Positions 1,271-60,661 of a stretch of DNA of 64,000 nucleotides are shown here, piece by piece (position 1 is the stretch's first letter; each line of letters begins with the position of its first letter). The position numbers and the translations under genes were made by a program. Origin of the DNA: Antedon mediterranea (taxonomy: Eukaryota; Animalia; Echinodermata); assembly GCF_964355755.1 (NCBI RefSeq), contig NC_092674.1, positions 12,586,001 to 12,650,000 on the forward strand, written 5' to 3'. The notes beneath the pieces are model-generated. The model saw only the letters and a program-made list of their open reading frames with translations. It made no database searches and was not told where the DNA came from.

Positions 1271-1369
1271 TTTGGCCTGAAGATCCAATTTAGCACCTTC
1301 CTTGAGCAAAATAGTGCAAACATCTGTGTGGCCGTTTTGTGCAGCCAAATGTAAAGGTGACCATCCATC
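1271..1369 (-). CDS. Ankyrin-repeat exon type A (DGWSPLHLAAQNGHTDVCTILLKEGAKLDLQAK)
   Basis: 99 nt; ctg (acceptor CAG) at 1370-1372, cttac (donor GTAAG) at 1266-1270; manual translation. Confidence 0.92.
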
Positions 1370-2656
1370 CTGAAATATTACAAACTATGTTATAGTAATT
1401 TTTCTCTAAACAAAATATTATAATATTGTCCTGAAATCAATACGATGTGATCAATTAAAAATGACATTATAGATTTAGATAATGCTACATTATTAAATTA
1501 AATCAAGAGTATCAGCCCTTGATGTTTTCTTGAAGATAATGTATTGTATATGTATACATTTGTCTTTCTTGTATAACATTTATTATATAAGTGCTTTATA
1601 AATCTATAAAACAAATAAGTGGGGTTTTTTTGCCTTAAAAATAAACACTTCATCCGATAGTGCTAACTAGTCTGAGTGTAAATTATGATAAACTGGCAGT
1701 TAGCTAAAATATCCATACTTTAAATTCTGTTCAGGTAACACATTTTGACTGCTAAATTCTTATCATTCATGGTTTCATTTTACCGTTACTTGGAGGGGAT
1801 ATGTTTTTTTAAATGTTTTATAAAATCAAATAAAAATCTCGATTCATATCTATTTATTTTATCATTTTGCATAAAATACAGTGTTGCTCTACAGTACCAT
1901 CCAAAAACAGAAAACTGAAAAAAAAACACGAAATATCATTCTCTAACATTCAGTGCCCTAAAGGCATATGGTAATGATTACAGAATCTATTACGAGAGGT
2001 GATGGACCTTTTCTTTGAACGTCAAAATAGTGCATTGGATAGGTTGGGTCCTCAGTAAAGTATCTTATAAAAATGAATACTGTAGTCCTATACGTGATGC
2101 ATAACTAACAATACGTTCCAGCTAATTCCTACATGTGGTCTTGGTAAACTATAAAACAAGGAATAATGAGAATACTTTCAATGACAGATTTATAAAAAAA
2201 AGATGTACAGTATGCATAATGTGACTTGTTTTATTGTTAAATAACTATGTAACTATGCATTTTTTGATAGGGATGTAATGGGATAAAACGATCAGCATTA
2301 CATTCCCTTTCCGATGGATGGATGGTTCAGTGTGGAATGTCGGCCATTTTAAAATACAAATGGCACCTAACTCTTTTGAATTCAGCAACTCAAGAATAAC
2401 AAAGTTAGCCAATAAAATCTATTTTGGCACACATATCGAGCTGGAGCTAGTTTTCCTTACATATATGTGACTGTATTATACCGTATCATAATGTAGTATA
2501 TTTTAAATTTTGACATGACATAATAAACATTGAAAGTTCTTTCTAACCTATTTTTTCTCGGGGTACGCGCCGCCGTCTTCTTTATATCTTGACATAGATT
2601 GTATATTGTTTTCAATAAGCCGTGCGGAGGATTCAGGTAATGTCTCTTAGTATTAA

Positions 2657-2694
2657 CAGGGAAGAGTTAAATTACGTAAATTAACTCTTCCCTG
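2657..2694. mobile_element. 38-bp minimal TIR element with 7-bp TSD
   Basis: CAGGGAAGAGTTAA...TTAACTCTTCCCTG perfect 14-bp inverted ends, flanked by GTATTAA on both sides; absent at paralogous site ~4845; copy at 41203..41240. Confidence 0.7.
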
Positions 2695-2731
2695 GTATTA
2701 AAGGCTAACACCGCGGCTTTAAAATGTATAT

Positions 2732-3293: not shown

Positions 3294-3392
3294 TTTGTCA
3301 TAAAGATCCAATTTAGCACCTGCCTTGAGCAAAACAGTGCAAACATCTGTGTGGCCGTTTTTTGCAGCCACATATAAAGGTGACGCTCCATC
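3294..3392 (-). CDS. Ankyrin-repeat exon type B (DGASPLYVAAKNGHTDVCTVLLKAGAKLDLYDK)
   Basis: 99 nt with canonical splice sites; inside ORF 3255..3467. Confidence 0.92.
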
Positions 3393-5711: not shown

Positions 5712-7100
5712 TGTCACAAGTGATTTAATTTTTGTTCCATTGTACCGTATGAGGGGGTCATTCATGCGTAGCGGCCTCTTATTGGATGATGGGTTGGTAT
5801 ATAAAGTGTGTGCGGGAACGGCGCGAGGTTGAAAACCAGGAGTTGGGAGTAAGCTGAGTGTTGCATTTCTTGATTGGCTGTGGCAAACTACTATTGTTGC
5901 ATTGATAAGTTGCTAAGCGGAGAAAATAAAGAAAACCACAAAGTAAGAGATATAGATATTTGATGCACACTCCAGCGATATTGTAGTCGTGTAATAAATA
6001 ACTCCTTAATTTCTAATCTGAGGTCTCTTTTTACGACTGTTAATTGAGTGGTAGGCTACATTGAAGAAAGGATTGACTAATTGAATTTATAACTAAAGGA
6101 CTCTGGCAACCAGAACACTTGTGAATACGGAATAGTAACGATATTGGAATTGAACGAGACGGAAAGGAAAAACTTACTAGGCCTACTAGTACGACACGCC
6201 ATTGAATTGGAGACATTAAAGAAAGACGTTAAAGAAAAGAAGGATGGTTACAGAAATAATGCGTGGAATGTTAAACACAACGGCTACTGGTGTGTGAAAT
6301 AGCCACCTGATTGGAACTTACATGGCATTATCAACGTGTAAATTTATTGTAATTATATATATGGAATAGATAGATGAATTATGAAATAACAAATATTATA
6401 TGTGTGGAAGAGAATAGAATAATGTACGAATTTAAGAAATAGCGTGAAACAAAGTTTTGTTATTATAAATATGGAATAGATACTGAATTATGAAATAACG
6501 AGTATTATATAATTATGTGAAAAAGAAACGAACATAAGACAAATTGATAAAATTAGTGGCTAAAATATATTAGAAGATGAATGATTTATAATCGAAGTAT
6601 ATAAGACGAGATAGAGAAAGTGTTGTATTAATTGGATCATAGAGAATGGGGATAGTATTTAAGAGGGTAATTCGAGATTTATATGATGAAATTAATTGAA
6701 TAATATTGTAAAGTGTAACGATGATGCAAGTATACGTATAGGGGAATTAGGGTAGAGTGTATTTGGAATAGAAGTAATTATTTATTTATTATTGTATTCA
6801 TTTATTTGTTTATTGTATTTAATTGGGGTTTGAGTATTAGGAAAGGGGTAAAGGCCATCTCTAGAGATAATTGAGGGAGTAAAGGGAACTTGTAAGATTT
6901 ATGTGTTTATTGTTAACGGGTATTTATTTATTAGATGTTATTGAATGGTTAAGTGTGAAACTTCATATGAATCCTCGTTTGAGCCTGAGGTATAAATGTT
7001 TAAAAGAAAAGGAAAAAAAAAAAATTAAAATAACGATAGAAGCTCTTGAAGTAATTTGTAATTGTTTTCTGTATAACTAAATTGGCAAGGTTTCGTGACA
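5712..7100 (+). repeat. 5' LTR (1389 bp)
   Basis: TGTCAC...GTGACA termini; TATA-like tatataaa ~5798, aataaa ~5993. Confidence 0.93.
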
Positions 7101-7104
7101 TTTA

Positions 7105-7121
7105 TGGGGGCTCGTCCGGGA
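7105..7121 (+). promoter_or_regulatory. Primer binding site complementary to tRNA-Pro 3' end
   Basis: TGGGGGCTCGTCCGGGA, 17 of the 18 nt of the canonical PBS-Pro TGGGGGCTCGTCCGGGAT, 4 nt after the LTR. Confidence 0.9.
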
Positions 7122-7216
7122 GAGTGCCAATTTAAAAAAAAAATACAGAAAAAAAATAACAGCATTTTAGTGTTCTTATTACAGATATTGAAAACGATAA
7201 GGCTACAGTGTGCATC

Positions 7217-10200
7217 ATGGATCTTGAAAGACTCGTCGAGGCTGGTAAGGCGTTGGGTTATAGTGGCATGGAATTGCGAGAGTTTGTCAGTGAGAGAGAG
7301 AAAAGTGAGGAATTTGAAAAGAAAGAAAAGCAGAAAGAGGAACGAGAGGAGAGGGCTCATCAATTAGAATTGCGCAGAAATGACCAACAGATATTAGAAA
7401 TGCAGTTAATGTTAGAAAAGGTTAAATTAGAGGGAGGGGACACTCCTCGAGTTAAAACATGCGACCCAAACACCAATAAGATAAATGCTCGAACTCCCAA
7501 GTTGCCCGCTTTCAATGAAGGAAAGGATGACCTGGATTCCTATTTGAAACGATATGAAAGGTATGCAGTTAGTCAGGGATGGAGTATTGAATACTGGGCT
7601 ATAAATGTAAGTGCTTTACTAACGGGAAAATCTCTCGAAGGGTATTCTAGACTTTCCACAGAGGATGCAGATAATTACCGGACATTGAAAACAGCACTTC
7701 TGAAAAGATTTCAGTTAACGGCAGATGGGTTCCGAAATAAACTTCGATTGGCGAAACCAGAGACAGGAGAAAGTGGTCATCAGTTCGCAGCAAGGATAGG
7801 AAATTATCTTACCAGGTGGATTGAATTGGCAGAAGCAACACAATCATATGATGGACTGAAAGACCTTCTATTGAGAGAGCAGTTTACTGATGGATGTGGT
7901 CGAGAGTTAGCGTTATTTCTTCGGGAACGTCAGCCAAAAACTATCGGTGAAATGGCTGATATTGCTGAGCAGTACCTAGAAGCACGAGGAGGTATGTTCG
8001 GAAATATAATAGCAGCAAAAAGATTGCCTACCACCACTCATAGACAGGTAACCCAAGAACCGGTACCCATCATTAATAATCCCCAAGTTAGGTCAAATCC
8101 CATTACTTGTTTTCTCTGTCATCGGGTAGGACATTTAGCAAGAAATTGTCGGGCCACAACTGCTTTTAAACCAAATACCGGCCTTACATGTTATAGATGT
8201 CATGGAAAGGGTCATTTGGCAAAAAATTGTAGACAAGATGTAGATAAGTGTGCTGGATTACGTAACCCATATAATGGTCCTCCTCATGAGGAACCCAAGT
8301 CTTTAATTTTACAGCAGGAACAATCCAATGGTACAGTTAACCCTAATCCTTTCCAAACCCCGGAAAATTGTGGAGGTATGATAATTAGTTCAAACCCTCA
8401 TAAATTGAATAGGTGTTGTATGGATAACAAATCTAGTTATGTAACTTTAAAATGTGGTAATCTTCTTCCTATCATGAGTGCAGCGTGGAAGGGATCTGGT
8501 CCAGGAAGTATGCCCGTTTCTCCTGGATTGGTTGGGCAACACAAGGTAACAGTCTTACGGGATAGTGGTTGCAATGGCGTTGTCATAAAACAGTGTTATG
8601 TATCCCCAGATCAATTTACTGGTAACGTGAAAACATGTGTGTTAATTGACGGTACTGTGAGAAGGCTGCCGCTTGCTACAATACAAGTAAATACTCCTTA
8701 TTTTACAGGTATGACTCAGGCGTTATGTATGGATAATCCAATTTTTGATCTTATATTAGGGAATATAGAAGGTGTTCAGTCTCCGGATGATCCCGACAAA
8801 ACGTGGACAGGACGAAACGTCCCAGCATGTGCAGTCACTACTCGGGCACAAGCTATAACACAATCAAAACCATTTAAATCACTCAAAACTCTAGAAGCAG
8901 TCGATCAAGTCATTACCGTTGAGAATTTAAGGAACGCACAAAATACAGATGTAACACTCCGAAAAGTGAAAGAACTGGCAGAAAATGAAGGTGTTCGCGT
9001 AAGTAAAAGTAACGCAACTTCTCATTTCTTCTATAAAAATAATCTTTTGTATAGGAAATTCAGCTCTCCGTCAGTTGAACATGGAAATATATTTACTCAA
9101 CTCGTTGTCCCAAAGTCTTTGCGACATCAAGTAATGCGACAGGCGCACGAATCATTATTAGGCGGCCATCAAGGTGCCAAGAAAACCACCGACAAAGTCT
9201 TAACGAACTTCTATTGGCCAGGGATAACCGCCGACATTACCAGATATTGCCGTTCCTGTGATATCTGTCAAAGGACCGTTCAAAAAGGTAGAGTAGCCAA
9301 AGTTCCTTTAGGTAATATGCCTTTAATCGAAGCACCATTTGAACGCATAGCTGTCGATATCGTTGGTCCAATTCATCCTATCTCTAAAAATAGAAATAGA
9401 TACATTTTAACTATACTAGATTTTGCTACCAGGTACCCGGAAGCCATCGCTTTACCAAGTATAGAAGCTGAACGTGTTGCGGAAGGTTTAGTCAAAGTCT
9501 TTTCTAGAATTGAAATTCCGAAGGAAATGCTGACGGATCAAGGGTCACAATTCACTTCAGAGGTGATGAAACAAGTATGCAAACTACTGTCTATTAAGCA
9601 AATGATGACTTCACCGTATCATCCGGCCTGCAATGGTCTTGTTGAACGATTTAATGGCACGTTGAAACAGATGCTAAAACGGATGTGTGCGGAACGACCC
9701 AGCGACCGGGATAGGTATATATATCCTCTGTTATTTGCCATTAGAGAGTTTCCACAAGAGAGTCTTGGGTTTTCACCCTTTGAACTTCTATATGGACGTA
9801 ACCTTCGAGGCCCTATGACCATTTTAAGAGAGTTATGGACAGGTGAAGTTCACACGCCAGAAACCAAGAACACTTATCAATATGTTGTAGACTTAAAGGA
9901 ACGATTGAACGAAACGTGTGCAGTTGCACAAAAGAATCTACAAAAAGCAAAAGGGAGATACAAGAAGTATTACGACAAGAAAAGTCGAGCACGAGAATTC
10001 CAAGTAGGTGATAAGGTTTTGCTTTTACTTCCAACTGACCGAAACAAACTTCTACTTCAGTGGAAAGGCCCGTTTCCAATCATAGATAAAATGGGGTATT
10101 TAGATTACCGCATAGATCTGAATGGGAAGTTAAAAACATTTCATGCAAATCTTCTTAAACGATATCATGAACGTCAAGATGTATCTGGAGCCGCGCTAGC

Positions 10201-11760
10201 TGAGTTCCAATCGGATGTTTCACAGGGGGCGCTGGAAGTAGCATGTACTTCAGTAATCGAAAGTGAGGATATGGTAAGTGATGCTCCAATTGCTTTACAA
10301 ATGACCAATGATAACCTTTTGCAGCTTCATCCTTTGCAGGCTAAAGAAACTATCGCCGATGTCCACATTAGTGACGATTGTGATGAAATGGGTAGAAAAG
10401 AGGTAAAACGTCTTATTGCAAATTATAGGGACGTTCTCACAGATTTACCGGGTAAAACCACTCTGGGCAACCATGACATAAAACTTCGTACAGATGAGCC
10501 TATTCGAACCAAACCATACCCATTACCACACGCATTGCGGGATACAGTGAAAGATGAAGTGAGTATGATGTTAAACATGGGGGTAATTGAACCATCATGC
10601 GCTCCATGTGTTTCTCCAATTGTTTTGGTTAAAAAACCGGATGGATCAAATAGATTCTGTGTGGATTTCAGGAAGGTGAACCAAAGCACCGTGTTTGATG
10701 CAGAACCAATACCTGACCAAGATGAGTTATTTACAAAATTAGCCACTGATAATTATTTCACAAAACTAGATCTTAGTAAAGGTTATTGGCAGGTACCGAT
10801 GGATGAACGTTCCAAACAACTTACATCATTTGTAACGCCCAACGGTTTATTCCAATTTAAAGTTATGCCCTTTGGTTTGGTAAACGCCCCGGCTACGTTT
10901 AGTAGAATAATGAGGAAATTACTTCATGGAATGAAAAATACCACAAGTTATATCGATGATATCTTAATACATACATCTTCTTGGGAAGAACATTTAACAA
11001 TTCTAAAAGAATTATTTCGTCGTCTACGAGCAGCTAATTTAACAGCAAGACCAAGTAAGTGTTTCATCGGATACGAATCTATTGAATTTTTGGGCCATGT
11101 TGTTGGGAAGGGTCATCTGAAACCACGACCTGAGAAAATTCAAAGCATCGTTCAAGCAAAACGACCAGAAACCAAAAAGCAACTGCGATCATTCCTAGGA
11201 ACAACTAATTATTATCGTCGGTTCATACCACACTATTCTGCTATTGCGTCTCCATTGACGGATCGAACGAAGAATCAAGAACCAAACAAGATACGATGGG
11301 AGGTAAGTCAAGAAAATGCCTTCAAAACACTTAAGTCAAAACTAACCAGTAAACCTATTCTTTGTCTACCAGATTTAAGTAAACCGTTTATTCTGCGAAC
11401 AGACGCCTGTGACGAGGGAATCGGAGCAGTGCTCCTTCAAAATTATGGAAATGAAAAATTCCCTGTGGCTTATGCCAGCAAGAAGTTACTACCCCGGGAA
11501 AAAGCGTACTCTATTATGGAGAAGGAATGTTTATCAATAATTTGGGGTGTACGTAAGTTTGAAACATACCTATATGGTCGAGAATTTACCTTAGAAACTG
11601 ACCATCAACCCCTTGTTTACATGCAAAAAGCTAAATTAGCGAATGGTAGAATAATGCGCTGGGCACTGGCGCGCTCCAGCCATACAGGTTCCGAATTGAA
11701 GCTATCAAAGGTAGCGATAACGTAGGTGCGGATTATCTCAGCCGCAGTTCATGTAGTTAG
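7217..11760 (+). CDS. Gag-Pol polyprotein: SCAN-like capsid region, 2 CCHC knuckles, aspartic protease, integrase, RT, RNase H; 2-bp frameshift near the C-terminus
   Basis: ATG at 7217; CFLCHRVGHLARNC and CYRCHGKGHLAKNC; LRDSG; HHCC + VDIVG/TDQG/VERFN + WKGPF integrase; LDLSKGYWQ, YIDD RT; TDAC/EKE/TDH RNase H. An extra CG at ~11672-11673 shifts the frame; the native tail LQPYRFRIEAIKGSDNVGADYLSRSSCS* ends at 11760. Confidence 0.93.
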
Positions 11761-11788
11761 AAAATGTATATCCCCATACATTGTTCTT

Positions 11789-11809
11789 GAGTGGGGGGGG
11801 GGGGGGAAA
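11789..11809 (+). promoter_or_regulatory. Polypurine tract
   Basis: gagt-G14-aaa immediately before the 3' LTR. Confidence 0.85.
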
Positions 11810-13110
11810 TGTCACAAGTGATTTAATTTTTGTTTCATTGTACCGTATGAGGGGGTCATTCATGCGTAGCGGCCTCTTATTGGATGATGGGTTGGTATAT
11901 AAAGTGTGTGCGGGAACGGCGCGAGGTTGAAAACCAGGAGTTGGGAGTAAGCTGAGTGTTGCATTTCTTGATTGGGTGTGGCAAACTACTATTGTTGCAT
12001 TGATAAGTTGCTAAGCGGAGAAAATAAAGAAAACCACAAAGTAAGAGATATAGATATTTGATGCACACTTCAGCGATATTGTAGTCGTGTAATAAATAAC
12101 TCCTTAATTTCTAACCTGAGGTCTCTTTTTACGACTGTTAATTGAGTGGTAGGCTACATTGAAGAAAGGATTGACTAATTGAATTTATAACTAAAGGACT
12201 CTGGCAACCAGAACACTTGTGAATACGGAATAGTAACGATATTGGAATTGAACGAGACGGAAAGGAAAAACTTACTAGGCCTACTAGTACGACACGCCAT
12301 TGAATTGGAGAAAGACGTTAAAGAAAAGAAGGATGGTTACAGAAATAATGCGTGGAATGTTAAACACAACGGCTACTGGTGTGTGAAATAGCCACCTGAT
12401 TGGAACTTACATGGCATTATCAACGTGTAAACTTATTGTAATTATATATATGGAATAGATAGATGAATTATGAAATAACAAATATTATATGTGTGGAAGA
12501 GAATAGAATAATGTACGAATTTAAGAAATAGCGTGAAACAAAGTTTTGTTATTATAAATATGGAATAGATACTGAATTATGAAATAACGAGTATTATATA
12601 ATTATGTGAAAAAGAAACGAACATAAGACAAATTGATAAAATTAGTGGCTAAAATATATTAGAAGATGAATGATTTATAATCGAAGTATATAAGACGAGA
12701 TAGAGAAAGTGTTGTATTAATTGGATCATAGAGAATGGGGATAGTATTTAAGAGGGTAATTCGAGATTTATATGATGAAATTAATTGAATAATATTGTAA
12801 AGTGTAACGATGATGCAAGTATACGTATAGGGGAATTAGGGTAGAGTGTATTTGGAATAGAAGTAATTATTTATTTATTATTGTATTCATTTATTTGTTT
12901 ATTGTATTTAATTGGGTTTTGAGTATTAGGAAAGGGGTAAAGGCCATCTCTAGAGATAATTGAGGGAGTAAAGGGAACTTGTAAGATATTTATTTATGTG
13001 TTTATTGTTAACGGTTATTTAATTATTAGATGTTATTGAATGGTTAAGTGTGAAACTTCATATGAATCCTCGTTTGAGCCTGAGGTATAAATGTTTAAAA
13101 GAAAAGGACA
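11810..13110 (+). repeat. 3' LTR with ~85-bp subterminal deletion
   Basis: Matches the 5' LTR but jumps gaaaagga>ca just before the TSD. Confidence 0.92.
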
Positions 13111-13662: not shown

Positions 13663-13761
13663 ATTGTTTGGAAGATCCACTTTAGCACCTGCCTTGAGCA
13701 AAATAGTGCAAACGTCTGTGTGGCCCTCTTGTGCAGCCACATTTAAAGGTGACCATCCATT
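13663..13761 (-). CDS. Ankyrin-repeat exon type C (NGWSPLNVAAQEGHTDVCTILLKAGAKVDLPNN)
   Basis: 99 nt with canonical splice sites; inside ORF 13585..13776. Confidence 0.92.
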
Positions 13762-20451: not shown

Positions 20452-20550
20452 ATTCTCCTGAAGATCCAAATTAGCACCTGCCTTGAGCAAAATAGTGCAA
20501 ACATCCGTTTGGCCCTTTAGTGCAGCCACATATAAAGGTGACGCTCCATT
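20452..20550 (-). CDS. Ankyrin-repeat exon type D (NGASPLYVAALKGQTDVCTILLKAGANLDLQEN)
   Basis: 99 nt, canonical splice sites, manual translation. Confidence 0.92.
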
Positions 20551-21342: not shown

Positions 21343-21879
21343 TTAGACCCCCTCCAAGGCAATTATTGTTATTGATTATACGAATTACGTAATTAGTTAG
21401 CTTAGCAATGATCTATGCCTCAAAAGCTCGGACGAGTTAGAATTTGAGGCGAAATGTCATAGGTCAAGGTCACAACTAACAAAAAACTATTTTACTGCCT
21501 AGAGACCACAGTTTTTATCCAATTCTCACTAAATTTAGCCACAATGATCAATGATTCATCATATAATTGTGGTTAAATTTTGAAGAGTCAGGGTCAAAGA
21601 TCAAGGTTCACAAAAAACAAAAAAAAAGAAATAAAAAAAAAAATTAAAAAAAAAACCTCGGTGTGACTTAAACCTGCGACCTCAACTGTGAGAGGCTGGA
21701 TACATAATCATTACACCAAACTTTCATCCACAACTTTGCAGTGTGTAGTTAGCCTATTTACACTTAGAACTAATAAAAAAAAATAAAAAATAAATATATA
21801 TATATATATTTTCCAGAGACATTTTATGTAGGGGAATTTTACAGTAGGCGGAGGTTTGTACTCTCAGAGTACCCTCTAG
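21343..21879 (+). mobile_element. HINE (non-autonomous Helentron)
   Basis: Subterminal IR accccctcc / ggcggaggt, 3' hairpin gtactctcagagtac then CTAGTT, aggtcaaggtca motifs; copy ~31666..32202; only the 3' end survives at ~61270..61303. Confidence 0.65.
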
Positions 21880-41839: not shown

Positions 41840-41938
41840 TTTGTCATAAAGATCCAATTTAGCACCTGCCTTGAGCAAAACAGTGCAAACATCTGTGTGG
41901 CCGTTTTTTGCAGCCACATATAAAGGTGACGCTCCATC
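41840..41938 (-). CDS. Ankyrin-repeat exon type B (copy)
   Basis: Same sequence as 3294..3392, splice sites intact. Confidence 0.9.
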
Positions 41939-45644: not shown

Positions 45645-46202
45645 CCCATATCGTATCTTTATGTGTTATCAGTATGCTGTTATTTACGTACCTATAGAGC
45701 AACACCTTCCCCGCGATTATGTGTACATTTAATGAAGAAAGAACAATACTTAAAACTGTTACGTAAAAAAGGCGATCTCGAGCGGCGTTTATTGTATGTA
45801 ATATTTTAGATTAGTTAATATTATCAACATGCACAAGTACCTTAAATTGAATTCTACAATGTAAAGGATTCCAATGAAAAAAAAATGGTCCTGCTCTAAA
45901 ACGTAGTGACAACTCAAATACAAGTTATTTTGTAAGATCTTGCTTGAAGGTATCCATTGCTTTAAAAGACAACGAAAGTCAATATTAACCTTGACAAGGC
46001 ACCGGTGTTCCGAACCATAATTATGTGAGAAGTACGACCGCCGTGCAGTTATCGACAGTACAGTCATCCTCGCTACAAATTACAGTGTCTATAATATGAC
46101 CCGCATTGTGGTTGGTTTATTTACCTATATTATTACCGGCACGCCCATTAAATCACACTGAATTATATAGCACCAGTTATTAATAATATTTGTAACACTT
46201 AC

Positions 46203-46301
46203 ATTGTTTGGAAGATCCACTTTAGCACCTGCCTTGAGCAAAATAGTGCAAACGTCTGTGTGGCCCTCTTGTGCAGCCACATTTAAAGGTGACCATCCAT
46301 T
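46203..46301 (-). CDS. Ankyrin-repeat exon type C (copy)
   Basis: Same sequence as 13663..13761, splice sites intact. Confidence 0.9.
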
Positions 46302-49300
46302 CTGAAATAATAACAAACATGTTATTGTAGTAGTAGTAGTAGTAGTAGTATAGTCTTCTACAAAAAGCTAATTAATATTGTATTGAAATTGTTTCGATGT
46401 TAAAAGCCAGGTGAGGGCAAACAAATTCTATTGATCTTGCATTCCCCTATGTTTCATAATGTTTGTGATGTTATGTGTGTTACACGAGCTTGTTAAAAAT
46501 AGGCACTTTATTATCAGTGGTGGATAGTTCAAATTACAATAAAATCTCTATTCATTTGTACACAAATGTTGTAAATAGAGAGACAATTTAAAAAAATCTA
46601 AAAATAAACAGTGTGGTAAAAATGTTATCAGAGGACTAAATATAGATAATACTTCATAGTTTTATTTTCATGCTATAGTAAAATTATCCACCGTATATCC
46701 ACCATCTTTTTTCACCTTCTATAGAGTCACCAGACATGTAATTAAACTAGGTTAAACTACTTAACTACTGAAAAAAGTCTTCCTGGTTTTTATAACAGAA
46801 TGTTACCAAATTTTGTATTTGACCATTTTAAGGGAAATCCATGTGTTTTCGTCTTGATGTCTATTACTATATATTATTTGATTTATGTACAATTAACAAG
46901 ATATTATATTTAAAATTCATGCCTGTATCTAAGCTTTAACTTAAATAAAGATTATTAACCTTTGATGTTTTCTTAAAGATAATGTATTGTATATGCATGC
47001 ATTTGTTTTGCTTGTATACTATTTTGTTATATAGTACGGTACTTTTGTACGTAGCATTTATATACTGCAAATTTGGTAAGATTTTGTGGTCCTTAATATG
47101 AAAGATGGCACTAGTTCTGCTGTCAGTTATTTTGCTACAATTATCAAAGAACCTATAGATACAGTGCACTGATTGGGTAATAGAATAATGTAGTTTGATG
47201 ACTACGGTTAGTGTAATTTTGCGACAGTTGAAAACTTCAACATTTAAGTTTTTTTGTTGGAGACATTGATATAGGCCTACCCACTGTCATATCTTACTTC
47301 TTACTTGAATCTTTGGGCTTTTAAACGCCCTCCATTTCTTCTGTATTTAACTAGAATTGGTACTCATAAATTTCAGGGCATAAATAATCATATGGCAATA
47401 CAATTACGTGCGTAGCGCATGTAACGCATGCGTACGCGCGCTTAAAATTGTCAAAATTTATTTTCGATGAAATAAGAGTACATTTCAGGCAATTTTAAGC
47501 GTTTACAAAATTGCCATGAGTGCGCATATTTTTGCGCGCGCACTGCGCGTTAAATGTTATTGCGTACTCTTTTTGCCCGATTTCTGTTTTCTTGACTTAC
47601 TTTTCAACTCGAAATTACGTTATACGAGCACGTCGAAAGTGACAGGCTACGCACGTGTAAATTAAAAAAATATAAATGTTTTTAAACATTTCAACATTTT
47701 TAAACATGTTCAGTAATTTCGGTCAGTATAGTTCACTATGTTGGTCGGTCTGTCTGTCTGTCGGTCTGTCGGTCTATCTGTCGGTCTATCGGTCTGTCTG
47801 TCGGTCCGGTATCACTATGCATTGTAGCACGCGACTTAATGGCTGTTGGCCTTGTTCTTTTTAAGATGTTCAATTCTAATATAATTAATACTGACAATTT
47901 ATTTAATATTCCTGTGATATTTCTGTGATTAGTTCTTTAGTTCTTTTAAATATGTCTACTATAGTCTTTCTTCAGGTTGATGTACTTATATTTCCATCCT
48001 TACCTTCTTATATAAGCAATTATTATTAATTATTATCACTAGATAGTACGCGAGCGAAGCGAGCATACCTTCTAGGTCGTGTCCACAGATAGTTCTCAAA
48101 TACACAGTAATTCCAGCGTAAAAAACTGGCGATTTTAAATGTACTTACCGAAGGACTATAAATACATTGTCGTTTTCCGAAACGAATAAATAGACACGAT
48201 GATTAATGTAGTCAACTAAAATTAACACCCATGGAATTAGGCCTACTTCAGAAGGAGAAACTTGTCTTAAAAATGAGTCCAATTTTTTTATTTTAACTCA
48301 TTTAAACAAACCCAATTTGTGTTTTGTATATACATTAGAGTTGAGGGATGGGGAAGAGGATGGGAAGATCAATTTTTAAACAAATTCTTTATCCACTCAG
48401 TAACGAAATATCGTTTTAAATGTTTTATAGGCCTATCAATAATATACCACTAAACAAAGTAAAACATTTACGATTTAATACTTTTTTAAAACTGTCCCTT
48501 TTATAGTCGATTGAAATAGTAAAGTACATGTAACGATACACCACTACGACGTTTATATTTTTATAATTATTAATTAATACAAACGTTGAGAAGCAACTCT
48601 CAGTAATACAGTTTTTATTTGTGTATTATGTGTTTATATATCCAGCAGTAGAGCCTACCCACAGTCACAGTAATAAATGTTCTTTGTATATGTGTTTATA
48701 TATCTAACAGTAACCACATTCACAGTAAGAAAATATTTGTAACAGAAATCAAGACGAAAAAACATGAATTTCCCTTAATATGGTCGAATACAAAATATGG
48801 CAAAATTCTGCCATAAAAACCAGGAAGACTTTTTTTCAGTAGTTAGGTCTTGATATATTCGTAACGTACGCATATTCAAATGAACCAAATTCACTAGAAT
48901 TTAGTAAGGAAGCAAGTTTTAGATTCGTCTTAAAAATATCATATCATCGCATCCCATCCTATTACTATTGAAACCGAATTGAAACATTTTAACAAGCTTT
49001 TTATGATGGTCACACACATCGTCAGATCTATGTATAGTAATGAGAAATATACAAACAATGATGTTGTTGTGATATCGGGGTGGGTGTTTGGGGAAGGCAT
49101 TTGTTGGTAACATTAATTTCATAATAAAATAAATTCACCTAGATATGAACAAGTACAATACTGTATTTTGTATTATCAATAAGTGATAACAGTAAACAAT
49201 TGTATGAAAATAATTGTTAAATAGATATAACAGTTAATCAATTATTCAACATAATATAATTATATTTGTGTTATAATAATACAGAATTGTGTGTATAAAT

Positions 49301-51189
49301 ATATATGGGTGGCGTGGCGTTTATTAGAGGGTGGAGGTTGAATATACCAAAGATGTTTTATGGGGGAGAGGGCGTTCGTATCTCGGGTCTCAACGGCGAT
49401 AAATGCAGATAGCGCGCAACCTGTTCAAATCTAACATCAACTCAACAACTCGGCTACCATTCGGCTATATCGAGATTTTACCTGATTTAAAATACATCTA
49501 TGATTACAGCTATAATCAGTTCTCCCGATGTAGGCATATACCCCGTTTATGATATTTAAAATTGTATATACTGATTTTAAAATTTACCCGCAATATAATT
49601 CGATGATGTTTTAATATAATTGATTTGTTGATCGTTTTTTTGCACAAACAAAAATGTGATGTGCCCATATATGGACATGATGATGTCATATAATTACCAA
49701 ATTACCAAATTTTGGGCACACTAATGTTATAGTGTAGACAGCTTGGAATGTTACGCGTGGCCGTAAACAAAACTCATAAATTTCAGGGCATAAATCATCA
49801 TATGGCAATACAATTACGTGCGTAGCGCATGTAACGCATGCGTACGCGCGCCTAAAATTTTCAAAATTTATTTTCGATGAAATAAGAGTACATTTCAGGC
49901 AATTTTAAGCGTTTACAAAATTGCCATGAGTGCGCATATTTTTGCGCGCGCACTGCGCGTTAAATGTTATTGCGTACTCTTTTTGCCCGATTTCTGTTTT
50001 CTTGACTTACTTTTCAACTCGAAATTACGTTATACGAGCACGTCGAAAGTGACAGGCTACGCACGTGTAAATTAAAAAAATATAAATGTTTTTAAACATT
50101 TCAACATTTTTAAACATGTTCAGTAATTTCGGTCAGTATAGTTCACTATGTTGGTCGGTCTGTCTGTCTGTCGGTCTGTCGGTCTATCTATCGGTCTATC
50201 GGTCTGTCTGTCGGTCCGGTATCACTATGCATTGTAGCACGCGACTTAATGGCTGTTGGCCTTGTTCTTATTAAGATGTTCAATTCTAATATAATTAATA
50301 CTGACAATTTATTTAATATTCCTGTGATATTTCTGTGATTAGTTCTTTAGTTCTTTTAAATATGTCTACTATAATCTTTCTTCAGGTTGATGTACTTATA
50401 TTTCCATCCTTACCTTCTATCACGTAAAGTATTAAGAGTACACGCCGGTTCATGTGCGCCATATTATTGCTCATATATTCTTTACTAAAATAATTTTGCA
50501 AGCACGTTAATGTATTGATTCAACATTACTTTGTTTATCAATATTGGGTTGTATATTCATATGAAGTAATAATATTAACAAGGTCAACACTCGGGAAACC
50601 AAATTTTCTGGAAAAAAGCAATGGATTTGATACTGCATGACATTTTTTTCTGTTATTAACCATAATAGGAAGTAAAAATAAAATGTCAACTATTGCTATA
50701 TTTTGGGGTTAAAGGTCACGTCACCAAATACAGGCCAAAAATATCAAAAAATCATATTTTTTAAATAAAACCATTAATACAATTAACTAGAGAATGTAGA
50801 GGCCCGTTGTGTTAAGAAAGCCGAAAAATATCGTGCATAGCCATAATACGTGATTTTGGCCCTCTATCGGCAGAACCTCCCGTAATCGGCCACTTTTCAA
50901 TTTCATAAAATAAGGCAATTAATAGGAGTTGATACCTTAGTGGTTATAACAGCCCAGGTCTATAGTCTACTTTAGTTAAGTATGGTCAACAACATGAATT
51001 CCAGAAAAGTGAGTGCTAAATTAAACTAAATTTGAACTTATCAAGCCCACATTTTTTTCGCAAATACTGTAGGAGCAAATCCAAGCCTAAGCAACTGAAG
51101 AAAAGATATTTAGGCCTAGCCTAGATGTCATAAGTAAGCCCATTAATTACAATTTATCACGGTTGGTTTCTTCGGAAAATAGAGAACTC

Positions 51190-51400
51190 TACGAACGCCT
51201 CTTGCCTTAGGCTTGTCCTTTAATATTCGTAATCCCCAACGTGTTACTCGTAGCTCTTCTTCTGTTGGTACTCATTTTTATATTCGTCGCTGCAGAACTG
51301 TATCTTCTTTTCAATCATATATCCCACGTGTTACCAGAATTTGGAATAACTTACCCAGTGAAATCCGCAACTTAAATATTTCTGTTAGTTCTTTTTTTTT
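51190..51400 (+). mobile_element. CR1-group LINE ORF2 C-terminal fragment
   Basis: RTVSSFQSYIPRVTRIWNNLP motif. Confidence 0.6.
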
Positions 51401-52064
51401 GCAAGCACGTTAAATGTATTGATTCAACATTACTTTGTTTATCAATATTGGGGTTGTATATTCATATGAAGTAATAATATTAACAAGGTCAACACTCGGG
51501 AAACCAAATTTTCTGGAAAAAAGCAATGGATTTGATACTGCATGACATTTTTTTCTGTTATTAACCATAATAGAAAGTAAAAATAAAATGTCAACTATTG
51601 CTATATTTTGGGGATAAAGGTCACCAAATACAGGCCAAAATACAAAAAAAAATCATATTTTTAAAATAAAAGCATTATAATGGTTTAGATTCACGGTGAT
51701 TCTAGAAACAGCAGCGAATTTATCAAAAATGTTGTTTTTGCTCTTTTAAATTTAAATTTCATGGTTTCTCCCAGTTTCCATGGTTACAAGACACTATTAA
51801 AATTTACCAAACATAACATTATTAGTGGATTTATATTTAATATGTCTTCTTTCTAAACAATATTAAAAAGTTTGGATTGCCAAATTTACCATTTTTGGAC
51901 TTTTAGCACACTTTGAATAGATTCTGTGCCATAGGCCAAGAGCTATTCCTTTATTATTCTATTTTTAATTTTTTTTTAAATCGGTAATCGTGACCCTTTA
52001 TAAGTTGTTGTATATGATGTGCCAGCGTGCTAGCTACGTTTTAGACATTGGAATAGTAAACAAC

Positions 52065-53360
52065 TAATAGTAAAAAGAACTTGAAACGAATTGTAAACGT
52101 CTGTCCAGCATTAGAGATAATGTTAAAATTCTCTTCTTGAAAGAGGTAATAGGTGCATGGAGTAATTTTATTTCTATTCATTATCCAAAGTCTGTTGACG
52201 AGCTATTACGAATGCAAATTTGGAATAATGAAGTAATAAGAATAGGCAACGAATGTATAAGATATGGAAATTGGGAAAAAGCAGGTATTCTGTTTGTTAA
52301 TGATTTGTTTAACAGCAATGGGCAATTTATGAATAAAAAAGAAGTCGAAGATACCTATGGAATTAAGATAAATTATATAAAATTAATAGAATTAAGAAGG
52401 CTTCTGATGGAAAAGTTTAACAATTTAATGATATGTGAAATAAAAAAAAACAGTTTTGCCAGATATTTCATTTCATATAAAAAGTACTCTTTCAACAAAG
52501 AAAGGGATATCGTATTTTTTATGATGTTTTAAATAACTCAATGTTTAAATCATGGAAATCACAAAAGAAATAGGCAGAGAATAAATTTGTATTCAATAAC
52601 GAACAATTGAAAACTAATCTACCTAGCTCCATAATATACGTGTACAATGAATATTGTTTTAATATATTTTCAATATAAAATTCTAAACAGAATAATTGCA
52701 ACAAATTATTTAAAATGAATATAAAAGAAACTTCAATGTGCTCATTTAGAGATGGTAAAATCGAAACCAATTAGCATTTGTTCTGTAATTGTCCAATAGT
52801 AAAAAGGATATGGAACCTTCTCCAGGAAACAATTTCAGAAAAAACTGGAGTGCAATTTATTTTTAGTAAAGAGAGCATAATTTTTGGATACCAAGATGCG
52901 CATCAGTTTTTTAATTTAAAAGCCATTAATGCAATTATTCTAATTGTAAAATCATTTATTTATAAATGTAAACTAGTTAAACGTAAGCCAAATATCAAAA
53001 TGGTTATGAACAACCGATTCAGTGTTTGTATTTACTCTATATAGCGCCCTCTATAATACTCTATAATAATATGTATGTTAAAAGTACAGCATTTATGCAG
53101 ACAGCATACGTTTGCTGATAGTCATACAGATACATACCTATTGACAGTAGCAGAATCGGGTGTTATGAAACGGAAAAATGTATTTATCATCAGAATTTCC
53201 AGGTCAGTATTTTAAATAGAAAATGGATAAAATTAGAAGCATTTATAAATCAGATGGATATCTTTGTTGTTTTTGTTTGATTTTTATTTTTTATTTGATT
53301 ATGTTTTTCCTTTGTAATGTATTATATGATGAAAAAAATAAATCAATAACAAAATAAAAA
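52065..53360 (+). mobile_element. 5'-truncated L1/Tx1-like LINE
   Basis: IWNN..I..G...W..AGI..VNDL and HLFCNCP..K.IW motifs; A-rich tail; 13-bp TSD AATAGTAAACAAC (52052-52064, 53361-53373). Confidence 0.75.
53011..53162. mobile_element. 152-bp MITE nested in the L1/Tx1 fragment
   Basis: CAACCGATTC...GAATCGGGTG ends (9/10 inverted match), 7-bp TSD TTATGAA; a related end lies at ~54373-54396. Confidence 0.65.
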
Positions 53361-53811
53361 AATAGTAAACAACCAAATAAAAGTGACATTGGGCAGACTT
53401 GTAAATGGTAGTTGCGAATGAATTGCCGTTTCTTACAAAGGGAGCATACCGCCTCTCGAAACTACGTATTTTGGTACCTGTATGTGTATAGCATGGCCTC
53501 CGGTTGTCGACGCGTGAGCTGGGCCAACTTCTAAATATATTTACTCTATAAATATTTCTTACAGAGGGACACCGCCAGATTAAGTGCGTCCTATCACTAG
53601 TAAGTAACTTGATTCAGATTTCTACAGGACGGATATTGACGCGTAAACCACAATGAAAATTAGTTTTGTCAATTAGTTGACGTTTTACTGTAATATTAAA
53701 TATATTTGTTACTAGAAATTAGTTTGATAAAATATATTCTACAAAATTAGTAGGCCTAATCGTTTTCCCATAATAAATTAAGGGGGTGGTGGGGGGTGAC
53801 ACGTGTTTGTT

Positions 53812-54060
53812 TATGAGTGAGAATCAATAAGGCATTTAATTAAAATGCAGACCGTCTTAAATTACATTGACATGTTCCGATAAATATATTCTCATCATCA
53901 GAACTGTAATCAAAGCCTAGAGTACTTGTATACGTACAAAGTTGCGTTTAAATGAGTCAATAATTAGTATGAGAATAGATTTATCGAAACATGTCACGTA
54001 ATTTTAAGACGGTCCACATTTTCATTAAATGCCTTATGATATTATTGATTATCAATCGTA
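53812..54060. mobile_element. Foldback MITE with ~85-bp imperfect TIRs
   Basis: aatcaataaggcatttaat...tattctcat mirrored by atgagaata...attaaatgcctt...ttgatt; TA at both ends. Confidence 0.65.
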
Positions 54061-55812
54061 ATTTGGTGGTATTATACATGATGTGCCTGTTTATGTACAG
54101 AGAAAGAGCTTATTTTAGTATCATATAGTAATATATTTTCTATATAAGAGAATATGGTATTTCAAATCAGGTACAAAAGCCGACGATCCAAGCGAATTAC
54201 ATGTTTTAAAAAAATCGGAAAACACTCATTTGTTTATTTTCAAAACACATTGCAAATCGGAGAGGTCCGATGGCATGCGTGACTGCCGGAACAACGCAAC
54301 AAAAATGAAAAACGAAAATGGCATGTTGTGTTTTCTGTAGGCCTATACAGTAATTAGTTTCTCAGAAACCACCATTGACAGTAGCAGAATTGGGTGTTTA
54401 TTTCAAGCTCACATAAACGGGCAAAGAAATCCTCGTTATTAAAAAAAAAACATTATTTAAGCTTATTCACTATAGTATATTTACACTAATCTACTTATTA
54501 ATTTATTTATATATTGTTTTCACTTTTAATTTTAATTATACCCACAGATTGCACTATTTTCTTTATACTTTATTAGGTACTCTTTTCGTACTGTTGGGAA
54601 TTGATAAATATTTCAGTTCAATTATTTTCCAAAATAATGGTACACAACAATGAAAGAAAATGTGAAAACAACATTTTTGTTACGTTCTTGTCATTAGAAA
54701 TATTATTGCGACTGAGGTGAACTTCGAAAATGCCAGTCAGATATACAAAAAAAGTTACAAGGAATAAATTAGCAATTGTCAACTGCATACTCATCCATCA
54801 AACTAGCCGCCATCGAGAAAATATTCAATTCCATGAATCTTATGAGGGTTAGGTTTATAGGAACAATAGTACTTGTTTTATTTGTTTTGGCAATTAATGC
54901 AATTAAAGCGTAATTAATTCGTCATATTCCATTTGGAATACAACGTCCTGTAAAATGACTAGAATGTTCAGATTTGTTAATTTTTAAATTATATTATATA
55001 CAGAATTATATATTATTTAAAATGTTCGGGTGGCTTCCATGCATGCGGCTTTTAGCCTTAATGGAAGTCCTTTTGTATATTTTTTGCTTTGTATTTTTTT
55101 TTATGGATCAAATAAACTGACTTGTGTGACTGGTATCTCGCCGCCTTTCCACGTATCATTTTATCGCATTCCATCATATTACTATTGAAACTGAATTTAA
55201 ACATTTTAACAAGCTTTTTGTGATGGTCACAAAATGCTAAGATACATTAAAAGAACGCTCATCGCCAGATCTATGTATAGTAATCAGAAATATTCAAACA
55301 AAAATGATGTTGTTGTGATGTCGGTGGTGGGTGTTAGTAAGTGTGGCGGCGTTCATTCAGGGAGGCATTTGTTGGTAACATTTTATAATAAAATAGATTC
55401 CCCTAGATATGAACAAGTACAACACCGTATTTGATATTATCAAGAAGTGATAACAGCTAAAAGTTGTATGAAAATGCTTGGTAAATAAATATGATATAAC
55501 AGTCAATGAATTATTCAACAAGTATAATTGTGTTTGTTTATAATACAATATTGTGTGTATAAATGTACGTGGCGGGGCGTTTATTAGAGTGTGGAGGCTG
55601 GATATTTAAAAAATGTTTTTTTGGGGAGGGGGCGTTTATTCAAATAAATGCGGTAGGCTTAATTGGTATAATCAATACATTATTTAGTTCAAATCAAACA
55701 CCAAATAATGAAAATCATCAGTGAACTGTTTCGGCATAAGGAAAACGTTCTAAACGGCTTGCAACATTGGTTAAACCACTCCGTGTCTCAATGGCGATAC
55801 AGTACATGCAGA

Positions 55813-57065
55813 GTATCAGAACGTACCAGTTCCAGAAACGGATGAAATACGAATTTAATTAAGTATTAAAGCAAACATAACAACGGACGATGATTAATTG
55901 ATAGTTGTCCCACTACACAAATACAAGGACCGGGAAAATCCAGCAAACTATCGCCCAATTACTCTATTATCCATTTTTTGTTAAAATATTTGAAAGAGAT
56001 TGGGTAGAATAAGAGAAAGGGTAGAAATGGAACAAATTATATCAGAGGAACAGGCGGGCTTTAAGAATAAGTATAGTACGATTGATAATACTTTTATACT
56101 TCAAACATAATCAATAAAGCATTACAAAAAAGGGGAAAACGCTATAGTGTGTTTGTAGATTTTAAACAGGCTTTTGATCGTGTGGATAGATCAATTTTAA
56201 TAAATTAAATAAGTTAAACCTTCTTGTAAACTTAATTGAACTCTTGATATCTATGTACACGAACACTGAAATAAAATGAAAACGCTGCATGGTTTAACAG
56301 ATGCAATATAATGTAGTATAGTATTAAAGCAAGGATGTCTCCTCTCTCCTCTTCTTTTCACTCTTTTTATATGATTTTAAAGACATTTTACAGAGGGAAA
56401 ATAACCACTACTGTTTAATAAATAACAATGTAATTTCACACTTATTATTTGCAGATGATCTAGTTTTGTTTTCATATTCTAAAGTTGGTCTACAAAGGCA
56501 AATAAATTGTCTTGTAAAATATTGCAATGTAAATAAGTTAGAAATAAATAAGTTAAAAACTAAAGCTTATGGTGTTCCGAAATGGTGGGGATGAAAAATG
56601 GTACATAAATGATGTCAATATAGAAATAGTAAAAGAATATAAATATTTAGGTTTTTATTTTAATAATAAGGTGGATTGGAACACGATGAAAATTAAACAG
56701 GCGGAAAATCACGCTTTACATTATCGTGCCATAATCTGTTGATTGAAAAGGGGCGACATTTAAAAATTAACCGAGAGTCTAGAATATGCATGTTTTGTGA
56801 TCAATTAAGTTTATAAGATGAAGAACATTTTCTTTTTTACTGTCCTTTTTATAAAAACACTAGAAAAAAATATATGTCTGATTTAAATGTATACATGTTA
56901 AAACATGTTTATAAACAATGAAACCCAAAAAATTAAGTCTTTGCAACCTATTTATGTAAAGCTTATGAAAAGAGAAAAACATGTATTTCCGAAATTAATA
57001 TAGATTTTATTATGTGAAATGGGCCGGAGGCCACTGTTTATTGAAATAAAAAGAAAGAAAGAAAG
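55813..57065 (+). mobile_element. RTE-X-like LINE, degenerate RT to 3' tail
   Basis: NYRPITLL, EEQAGF, FVDFKQAFD, KQGCLLSPLLF, LFADDLVL and C-terminal Cys/His motif; (AAAG)n tail; clade assigned from motifs only. Confidence 0.7.
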
Positions 57066-60000
57066 TTGGTCTATACATCAGCGTAGTACAGAAACGGCTT
57101 TGTTAAAAGTCAAAACATATATTCTCCACAACTTTGCCCACAGGTTGCGTGCTTATAAGCAATAATTGATACATGTCATCCGTGTTCGACACAGTGGACC
57201 ATACAGTTTTAATTAATAGATTATCTAATGAGTTTGAGTATCAAATTTGGTGCTATAAATTGAATTGAATCATGTTTAGACAATCGATGTTACAAGGTCA
57301 AATTGTTGGGTTGTGAATCTGTAAAAACAAAAATTAAAGTCGGTGTCCCACAGGGGTAAACAATTAGCCCGGCATTTTTTACAGCGTGTACTAGACCTAT
57401 TGCCGATATTATAAAGTTTCATAATGTTGGGTATCATCTATATGCTGATGATACCCAACTTTATTCAAATTTTGATCCTAAAATAGCCGGTGATTTAGAA
57501 GTGTCTATTTTTTTAGATTAATAATCTGTATCAAAAAACTTAAAATATGGATGTGTAAAAACAAACTTACGCTTAATGAGCAAAAGACAGAACTTTTAGT
57601 TTTGGTTCCAATAAAGGTTAATATTAATGATAGTAACATTGAACTTAATATTGGTGGTAACATTCTGAAACCATCAGATACCGTTACGAATCTTTGATAC
57701 AGACCTTAGCATGACACCTCATATTAATATGATTTGTATATGACTTCTATATCTTTATATATTTATATTTTCCTATATGTCATTTTTCATTGAGATTTCT
57801 ATTTTTATATCTTAAAATTGTAACAAAATATGTTAAGCGCTTTGATCAACTATAGCGCTATATAAGCAATTATTATTAATTATTATCATTAGATAGTACG
57901 TGAGCGAAGCGAGCGTACCTTCTAGGTCGTGTCCACAGATGGTTCTCAAATACACAGTAATTCCAGCGTAAAAAAACTGGCGATTTTAAATGTACTTACC
58001 GAAGGACTATAAATACATTGTCGTTTTCCGAAACGAATAAATAGACACGATGATTAATGTAGTTAACTAAAATTAACACCCATGGAATTAGGCCTACTTC
58101 CGAAGGAGAAACTTGTCTTAAAAATGAGTCTAAGTTTTTTTATTTTAACTCATTTAAACAAACCCAATTTGTATATAACACTAAAGTTGAGGGATGGGGA
58201 AGAGGATGGGAAAATCAATTTTTAAACAAATTCTTTATCCACTCAGTAACGAAATATAGTTTTAAATGTTTTATAAAGGCCTATCAATAATATACCACTA
58301 AACAAAGGCAAACATTTACGATTTGATACTTTTTTTTAAACTCTCCCTTTTATAGTCGATTGAAATAGTAAAGTACATGTAACGATACACCACTACGACG
58401 TTTATATTTTTATAATTATTAATTAATACAAACGTTGAGAAGCAACTCTCAGTAATACAGTATTTATTTGTATATTATGTGTTTATATATCCAGCAGTAG
58501 AGCCTACCCACAGTCACAGTAATAAATGTTCTTTGTATATGTGTTTATATATCTAACAGTAACCACATTCACAGTAAAAAATCGATTCTAATGGTGAACA
58601 AAAATGGGTAATACGTATTTACAATATTTCTAAAGTATTGCAATATTATATCTCAGTTTTAAGTTTATTCTCCAAGGGCCCATACATTTACCTACAAATT
58701 GGGAGTCTGAGAGATTGGAATGTTCTATTCATCGCAAATCAATACATTTGTATAAACGTATATTAAATCTAACAAAATAGTATTTTTTTAAAGAAAATCG
58801 GTCTGTCTTCAACATTATGAGACTGTACTCGAGCTGTTCAACCGGTTTTCAGCTATTAAAGCTCAGGTACAAGCATGAATTTTAAATATAATATCTGGTT
58901 AAGTACATACATGAACTATTTGTAACAGAAATCAAGACGAAAAAACATGAATTTCTCTTAAAATGGTCGAATACAAAATATGTCAACATTCTGCCATAAA
59001 AACCAGGAAGACTTTTTTTCAGTAGTTATGTCTTGATAGATTCGTAACGGACGCATATTCAAATGAACCAAATTTACTAGAATTTAGTAATGAAGCAAGT
59101 TTTAGATTCGTCTTAAAAATATCATATCATCGCATCCCATCCTATTACTATTGAAACCGAATTGAAACATTTTAACTAGCTTTTTATGATGGTCACACAC
59201 ATCGTCAGATATATGTATAGTAATGAGAAATATACAAACAATGATGTTGTTGTGATGTCGGGGTGTGGGTGTTTTTGGGGAAGGAATTTGTTGGTAACAT
59301 TAATTTCATAATAAAATAAATTCCCCTAGATATGAACAAGTACAACACTGTATTTCGTATTATCAAGAAGTGACAACAGTAAACAATTGTATGAAAATAA
59401 TTGTTAAATAGATATAACAATTAATCAATTATTCAACATAATATAATTATATTTGTGTTATAATACAGAAGTGTGTGTATAAATATAATGTGGGTGGCGT
59501 GGCGTTTATTAGAGGGTGGAGGTTGAATATTCCAAAGATGTTTTATGGGGGAGAGGGCGTTCGTATCTCGGGTCTCAACGACGATAAACGCAGATAGCGC
59601 GCAACCTGTTCAAATCTAACATCAACTCAACAACTCGGCTACCATTCGGCTATATCGAGATTTTACCTGATTTGAAATACATCTATGATTATGGCTATAA
59701 TCCGTTCTCCCGATGTAGGCATAGACCCCGTTTATGATATTTAAAATTGTATATACTGATTTTAAAATTTACCCGCAATATAATTCGATGATGTTTTAAT
59801 ATAATTGATTTGTTGATCGTTTTTTTGCACACAAAAAATGTGATGTGCCCATATATGGACATGATGATGTCATATAATTACCATATATGGGCACATTAAT
59901 GTTATAGTGTAGACAGCTTGGAATGTTACGCGTGGCCGTAAAAAAAAAACATTGGAGGGGAGCAAAAACTCGGAAGTCGCAAAATAGTATTAGTGAAACG

Positions 60001-60562
60001 CGTAATAACATTGCAGTAATATTTATTAATTCATAAAGTTTATGAAATAATCAAATTAAAATAATTATTACAAAGTGCGACAGACAGTTATTACAAAGTG
60101 CGACAGCTCGATTACTACAAGTGCGACACAGTACAAACGGGGTTTACAGATAGTAATTATATGCGATGTGTCTTTTTTAAGACAGTACTTATCAGGAATG
60201 GACCCTATTTGTGTCTTTTGTTGCATTTCGGGATCATTCATTTGAAAATAATATTAAGTTCTGTGGTGAGATCTTACTTGGTGATTCAGGGCTTTAAATG
60301 ACCGGCACTTAAAAACTGTCTTTGATTTATCTTACTTCCCAATGTCAAGATTAACATTGATGAGGCAGCGTTGTTCCGAATTACGTGAGGGGTACCGTGC
60401 AGTTCTCGACAATACAGTCATCCTCACTACAAAGTAGGCCTAAATTGGTTCATTTAGGTATGTTATTACCGATACGCCTTTTAAAAATTGTAAAATTAGC
60501 ACTTTGTTTTAATCACACTGAATTATATAGCACATATTATTATTAATGTTTGTAGCACTTAC

Positions 60563-60661
60563 ATTCGTCTGAAGATCCAAATTAGCACCTGCCTTGAGCA
60601 AAATAGTGCAAATATCCGTTTGGCCCTTTAGTGCAGCCACATATAAAGGTGATGCTCCATT
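60563..60661 (-). CDS. Ankyrin-repeat exon type D' (NGASPLYVAALKGQTDICTILLKAGANLDLQTN)
   Basis: 99 nt, canonical splice sites; differs from D by V17I, E32T and one silent change (GCG>GCA). Confidence 0.92.

Follow-up and report, generated by a model that had tools for sequence, protein, structure and literature searches.

The sequence analysed here, referred to as the window, is a stretch of 64,000 nucleotides from the feather star Antedon mediterranea (contig NC_092674.1, positions 12,586,001 to 12,650,000), and its main feature is an array of ankyrin exons which probably belongs to a feather-star gene. When both strands are scanned without gaps for the first exon, ten ankyrin exons are found on the minus strand, each 99 nt long, in phase 0 and with an open frame (10/10). 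All ten are flanked by splice sites (acceptor ...ttatttcag or ...aatatttcag, donor gtaagt), and the introns between them range from 1.2 to 14.3 kb. The exons fall into five types, found in the transcript order E C B A D A D C B A (Table 1). The types are 64–94% identical to each other and the neighbouring exons are 64–76% identical to type A; copies of the same type are identical in sequence (6/6 pairs). Concerning the register, the Pfam Ank domain (PF00023) spans model positions 1–33 on exon C, so that one exon is one repeat; this had been proposed in the initial annotation. PF00023 scores 41 and 35.3 bits on the two of the five types scanned (cut-off 21.1), and a generic ankyrin profile of 1495 fetched repeats scores all 10 exons at 44–61 bits. 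No eleventh ankyrin exon is found in the 64-kb window with this profile. Inverted or broken exon copies are found in the window neither by the exon scan nor by the profile (0 on the plus strand), and Rfam gives 0 matches in the window. Introns at repeat borders are common across ankyrin genes.

Table 1. Ankyrin exons of the window in transcript order, followed by duplicated blocks and mobile elements (X1: sequencing run described in the text)
Feature	Position	Strand	Basis and remarks
Ankyrin exon type E, first in transcript order, NGASPLYVAALKGQTDICTILLKAGANLDLQTN	60563..60661	-	Exon scan; 4 nt from type D
Ankyrin exon type C	46203..46301	-	Exon scan; identical to 13663 copy
Ankyrin exon type B	41840..41938	-	Exon scan; identical to 3294 copy
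Ankyrin exon type A	39821..39919	-	Exon scan, contigs; X1 contigs join family exons end to start here
Ankyrin exon type D	30775..30873	-	Exon scan
Ankyrin exon type A	29496..29594	-	Exon scan
Ankyrin exon type D	20452..20550	-	Exon scan
Ankyrin exon type C	13663..13761	-	Exon scan; Pfam Ank model positions 1–33
Ankyrin exon type B	3294..3392	-	Exon scan
Ankyrin exon type A, last in window, DGWSPLHLAAQNGHTDVCTILLKEGAKLDLQAK	1271..1369	-	Exon scan, Pfam
10.3-kb tandem duplication, adds A–D exon pair	19764..40414 (19764–30089 + 30087–40414)		99.95% identity
Older copy of four-exon block (E/D-C-B-A)	38551..64000		95–99% identical in pieces to 1–24436
Gypsy-type long terminal repeat (LTR) retrotransposon in C–B intron	5712..13110	+	Open gag-pol frame 7160–11722; separate from ankyrin protein
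Solo LTR, same site in duplicate block as Gypsy element	44261..45644	+	Block map

The array has grown by duplication of intron–exon blocks with two or four exons and with breakpoints in introns. Blocks with a counterpart elsewhere in the window at 94% identity or more make up 83% of the sequence. The tandem duplication of 10.3 kb shows 5 differences in 10,328 columns, and its junction is unique and intronic, with 3-nt microhomology. Since all exons are in phase 0 and the breakpoints are intronic, every exon gain preserves the frame. The introns beside different exon types can be aligned with one another, so the types arose as exon-plus-intron cassettes. Exon-cassette duplication, which the initial annotation had put forward, is thus borne out by the block map and the 10.3-kb junction. 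Ankyrin duplication is described as typically multi-repeat, often by four (PMC1553488).

Evidence on splicing comes from public sequencing runs. Five runs contain this DNA and none is recorded as RNA; run X1, RNA by assumption, stems from a different sample and covers the introns too. A joint from 39918 to 39820 (back 99 nt, exon start to exon end) is found in 2 X1 contigs and in none of the DNA runs X2–X4. At exon A the loose ends of X2–X4 are intron-like; one X1 loose end, at the 3' edge of the exon, is identical to the initial 30 nt of exon D, which comes next in the window. Manual translation of further X1 junctions gives the endings TTN, PAN, QRN and QNK. None of these is found among the five types of the window, and the family is therefore larger, varying at the same hairpin codons. 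The X1 contigs hold several junction types, and isoforms and paralogs look alike in such contigs. No B–A or C–B splice joint is found among the 15 of 115 joints listed (contigs on 39500–47000). At the level of the family, the spliced transcript which the initial annotation had called for is seen as exon-to-exon joins in X1, and we regard the ankyrin exons as almost certainly real and spliced. An origin as transposon-derived pseudo-exons was also considered and is ruled out by the frames and splice sites, intact in 10/10 exons, and by the observed spliced joins. At 39883 every run also holds a divergent ankyrin exon type (about C-T-P-L-H-S-A-A-S-Y) which is missing from the window and may be a capping or paralogous exon.

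The differences between the exon types are mostly replacements. Types A and B differ at 10 nt in the codon table, with 8 replacement codons and 0 silent ones; the ratios of replacement to silent codons are 9:1 for A/C, 11:1 for A/D and 9:1 for B/D. Across the five types 15/33 residues vary and 18 are invariant; 3 of the differences are purely silent (at codons 15 and 16, and GCG/GCA at codon 3). The multi-state positions are 7, 11, 12, 31 and 32. All of these counts, together with the multi-state sites and the invariant framework, had been given in the initial annotation and were reproduced. It had also equated the variable sites with those randomised in designed ankyrin repeat proteins (DARPins), i.e. 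exon positions 1, 3, 11, 12, 31 and 33. The six codons do change fast (see below); however, the two most variable sites, 32 and 7, match the hairpin Asp and the TPLH His, both fixed in DARPins, so that the overlap is only partial. The placement of residues on the binding surface follows the Pfam register and the literature. The array differs from DARPins in being natural, in having at least 10 repeats and in being hypervariable also at these positions 7 and 32. Many DARPins are found among the PDB matches. Like the window repeats, they are modules of 33 aa whose framework stays fixed while residues on the concave face vary (PMC8229355, PMC8683736).

Codon models were fitted to the 5 sequences of 33 codons with two trees and two frequency models. 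Model M2a is favoured over M1a in 4/4 fits (p=0.0004–0.023), with omega, the ratio of replacement to silent rates (dN/dS), at 7–16 on 11–23% of sites; the positively selected sites are 3, 31 and 32 and sometimes 7, 11 and 12. When double-nucleotide changes are allowed or the homoplastic codon 3 is dropped, p is 0.008–0.050 (6/6 fits). An intron-calibrated parsimony test was based on 239 gap-free flanking-intron columns, the test codons being the six DARPin-equivalent ones named beforehand by the initial annotation. These six show 15–18 changes vs about 8 expected at the intron rate (p 0.002–0.014), whereas the 24 framework codons show 8 vs about 31 expected. The p-distances (proportions of differing sites) have the same order in 6/6 type pairs: they are highest in the six codons (0.28–0.56), lower in the introns (0.07–0.26) and lowest in the framework (0.03–0.07). 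Variants were also collected from the contigs of other samples, where all 37 listed were used and clipped exon ends were omitted. In these contigs, a larger share of the possible first- and second-position variants at codons 11–12 is seen than of the possible silent framework variants (7/12 vs 5/45, p=0.0015). At codon 11 as at codon 12, each of the three alternative bases turns up at the first position, and codons 7, 8, 11 and 12, chosen after the fact, show 14/24 possible variants. Statistically, then, the hairpin codons (31, 32, 33, 1, 3) and those of the first helix (7, 8, 11, 12) outpace the introns, and the framework is slower. Diversifying selection on the predicted binding face is in our view likely. 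The claim of the initial annotation to this effect stands as far as the class of sites with omega above 1 and the faster-than-intron codons are concerned, whereas the low silent count is in part a matter of low silent divergence in the framework.

Protein look-alikes were sought with an exon profile against proteins of 73–2000 aa (best 120 matches) and against 1.84 billion cluster representatives (best 150), and by aligning the exons to a long ankyrin protein, with a reach up to 4080 aa (best 120 matches). The best five exon-profile matches are Mytilus nSTAND3-ankyrin proteins, of which one has a CARD and two have a DZIP3-type HEPN domain. Other look-alike arrays have NACHT (Zophobas), Death or nothing recognisable attached. 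A protein of the brittle star Amphiura (P0136) contains about 26 similar ankyrin repeats followed by Roc, two CARDs, Death and DUF4559, and is an uncharacterised candidate receptor of a putative ANK-ROCO type. Echinoderms and amphioxus also have ANK-ZU5 (P0509, Strongylocentrotus) and ANK-GT4 glycosyltransferase (P0161 Branchiostoma, P0463) arrays. The ESM Atlas gives generic ankyrin clusters only. Like the window, the uncharacterised invertebrate arrays (Mytilus P0001, P0004, P0133; Amphiura P0136; Branchiostoma P0161; Zophobas P0122; Strongylocentrotus P0509) have long runs of similar 33-aa repeats in the same register; at no more than 21/33 identity per repeat this is a likeness only. To our knowledge, none of these look-alike proteins has been functionally tested. 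Per-position variability correlates with that of the window in 8/8 hand-picked unrelated arrays (rho 0.39–0.70), and the 'natural DARPin' pattern is thus a recurrent one in recently expanded ankyrin arrays. Such arrays often sit on conflict or death-signalling domains (for context, PMC8195603). Mussels and abalone also have an expanded-looking CARD/HEPN-nSTAND3-ankyrin family (P0001–P0005, P0133, P0205, P0425), with near-identical repeats varying on the binding face; a literature search for nSTAND3 together with ankyrin gave a fungal study only. The first query matches ankyrin-2 at 41–44% identity. Canonical ankyrins (ANK1–3), NOMPC and tankyrase are ruled out as counterparts, the window repeats being identical and recently duplicated and not old, divergent and fixed in number.

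Two known systems come closest to the array. Ankyrin arrays of fungal NOD-like receptors (NLRs) show repeat-number polymorphism and five positively selected positions on inner helices and the hairpin; fungal NLRs are enriched in high-identity repeats, which metazoans rarely have (0.8%) (PMC4986451). As in the window, the 33-aa repeats of these sensors of high internal conservation (HIC) are near-identical and are gained and shuffled, positive selection falls on the inner helix and the hairpin, and concerted evolution is proposed. The window differs in being animal, in having each repeat as its own exon within kb-scale introns and in being duplicated together with those introns; also, most of its types lie below the HIC cut-off (>85% over 100 aa), whereas same-type copies lie above it, and NACHT is not seen in the window. 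The second system comprises the brown-algal receptors with one exon per leucine-rich repeat (LRR; ROCO) or tetratricopeptide repeat (TPR; NB-ARC), which undergo shuffling and diversifying selection (PMC3341825, PMC11378527). These sources describe one symmetric exon per repeat, exon duplication and diversifying selection on the concave face in candidate immune receptors; the first two are shared with the window and the last is proposed for it likewise. The window is ankyrin and not LRR or TPR, its exons are phase 0 vs phase 2 in ROCO, and it has 0 inverted or inactivated exons. The parallel which the initial annotation drew with these genes is supported by the symmetric exons, the selection and the duplication. 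Concerted evolution of metazoan repeats has been linked to immunity (PMC5100051). Searches of the open-access literature (listings and abstracts) turned up no account of ankyrin arrays with one exon per repeat, whether from crinoids or from other animals. The initial annotation had recognised no described family for the array, and none was found in these searches, but the pattern is known in kind from fungal NLRs and the 8/8 arrays. The window combines two known designs, the fungal HIC sensor and the brown-algal exon-per-repeat gene, in an animal where neither was found described.

We favour the reading, at a probability of about 0.55, that the array is the variable ligand-binding domain of a large intracellular immune-type sensor whose signalling domains would lie outside the window. 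Purifying selection and gene conversion would keep the repeats stackable in any order, diversifying selection would retune the groove, and point change and repeat reshuffling would jointly yield new binding surfaces. By analogy to the mussel, brittle-star and amphioxus look-alikes, the array might gate a STAND NTPase or a ROC GTPase with death-fold or enzyme effectors. We consider unlikely a further step, in which a family of intracellular crinoid receptors would draw its ankyrin surface from a large stock of single-repeat exons that can stand in for one another, are exchanged between alleles and are alternatively spliced into many isoforms. If true, a basal echinoderm would possess a natural DARPin library, and animals would have an ankyrin-based equivalent of the exon-shuffling receptors of brown algae. 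In echinoderms, immune diversity has been described mostly in terms of expanded gene families; with the same 99-nt exon as unit of duplication, splicing and binding specificity, a deuterostome would have a mechanism at the level of the repeat as well, and such a gene would have converged on the solutions of fungal NLRs and of the brown-algal genes. For the design of libraries, sites 7 and 32, selected in nature and lying outside the DARPin six, offer a hint.

Several points weigh against the sensor reading and the selection on which it draws. The selection sample is small (5 sequences of 33 codons, two of them nearly identical), the site models place about 70–90% of codons at omega near 1, and omega of the whole exon does not clearly exceed 1 (M0 omega 2.1–2.3, log-likelihood within 1 unit of M1a). 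Replacement and silent variants of the framework show no difference in frequency (7/136 vs 5/45, p=0.15). The framework silent sites are less diverged than the introns (1/12 four-fold sites where 5.2 would be expected; p=0.035 with the intron rate from parsimony, significance being lost at lower rates); this suggests that gene conversion or homogenisation, or splice constraint, acts over the exon core. Because silent divergence in the framework is low, dN/dS is inflated; the intron-calibrated test, being calibrated on the flanking introns, is unaffected. Codon 3 conflicts with codons 1 and 33, which is a sign of recombination and can inflate site-model tests. The location of the variable sites is uninformative alone, since 8/8 unrelated arrays vary there. 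No close protein or gene model was found, the best per-repeat identity being 21/33 among 519 fetched proteins, although this argues only weakly that none exists. The scores of bacterial and oomycete proteins are about as good, and at such identities the top ranking of Mytilus does not amount to orthology; among the matches listed, many of the top ones are without an immune domain or have kinases. Besides the assumed nature of run X1, its joins speak for splicing of the family and not of each window copy, and may stem from paralogous loci. Eight queries (Roc-CARD-Death, CARD-nSTAND3, HEPN, GT4, ZU5, COR, NACHT, Death) gave 0 matches to non-ankyrin domain exons in the window. No NACHT, NB-ARC or nSTAND domain lies N-terminal to the repeats within the window, and no Roc match is found in it; the 3' end of the gene lies below coordinate 1. 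With no effector exon and only ten ankyrin exons in the window, the gene must extend past it. The immune or allorecognition role suggested by the initial annotation therefore did not gain support from an effector domain in the window or from a close full-length protein.

Part of this evidence would also suit a non-immune ankyrin scaffold or adaptor after a recent segmental expansion in a repeat-rich region, where relaxed constraint lets the surface codons drift while structure and gene conversion preserve the framework. The variable positions shared with all eight unrelated arrays, the whole-exon omega not clearly above 1 and the ratios inflated by low silent divergence all fit such a protein, as does the finding that long ankyrin arrays generally carry more similar repeats (PMC7314423). 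Relaxation could not, however, take change beyond the neutral rate, and the six codons named beforehand diverge more than the introns in 6/6 pairs, about two-fold by parsimony; codons 11 and 12 also show every alternative base at their first position. We consider a scaffold unlikely. Even on a housekeeping protein, the array would remain a clear example of a repeat protein growing through the duplication of exons. The evidence for selection is identical if the array serves diversifying recognition of something other than pathogens (allorecognition, gamete or symbiont control), or if it belongs to an ankyrin-ZU5-death or enzyme-fused architecture in place of a STAND/ROC switch. The echinoderm and amphioxus arrays on ZU5 and GT4 and the role of fungal high-identity arrays in allorecognition (PMC13449251) point in this direction, but no signal peptide or membrane exon is seen in the window and no window feature favours a specific alternative, which leaves this at a minority chance similar to that of the scaffold. 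Ankyrin arrays are usually cytoplasmic, which counts against recognition of this kind as well.

It is very improbable, lastly, that the copy number is partly an assembly artefact or that some copies are unused. Such a view draws on the near-identity of the 10.3-kb duplicate and on the identical exons of the A, B, C and D copies in 6/6 pairs; against it, the junction is a unique intronic join with no shared repeat, the other blocks differ by 1–5% and by a full element vs a solo LTR, and frame and splice sites are kept in all 10 exons. The five distinct types would be unaffected.

Concerning the mobile elements of the window, the Gypsy element has an open frame of 1521 codons, LTRs 98.2% identical and a 5-bp target duplication (CCCAT); about 85 nt are missing close to the end of the right LTR. 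Over 1485 aa its gag-pol product shares 98% identity with a protein of Antedon mediterranea, and the second-best match reaches 68%. A broken non-LTR retrotransposon with reverse transcriptase fragments (Pfam RVT_1) is found in both copies of the 10.3-kb duplication (25648–27439 and 35973–37764). The largest non-duplicated stretch apart from the Gypsy element is 51678–56568; a frame of 152 codons at 52074–52529 has no Pfam match and resembles a retrotransposon tail.

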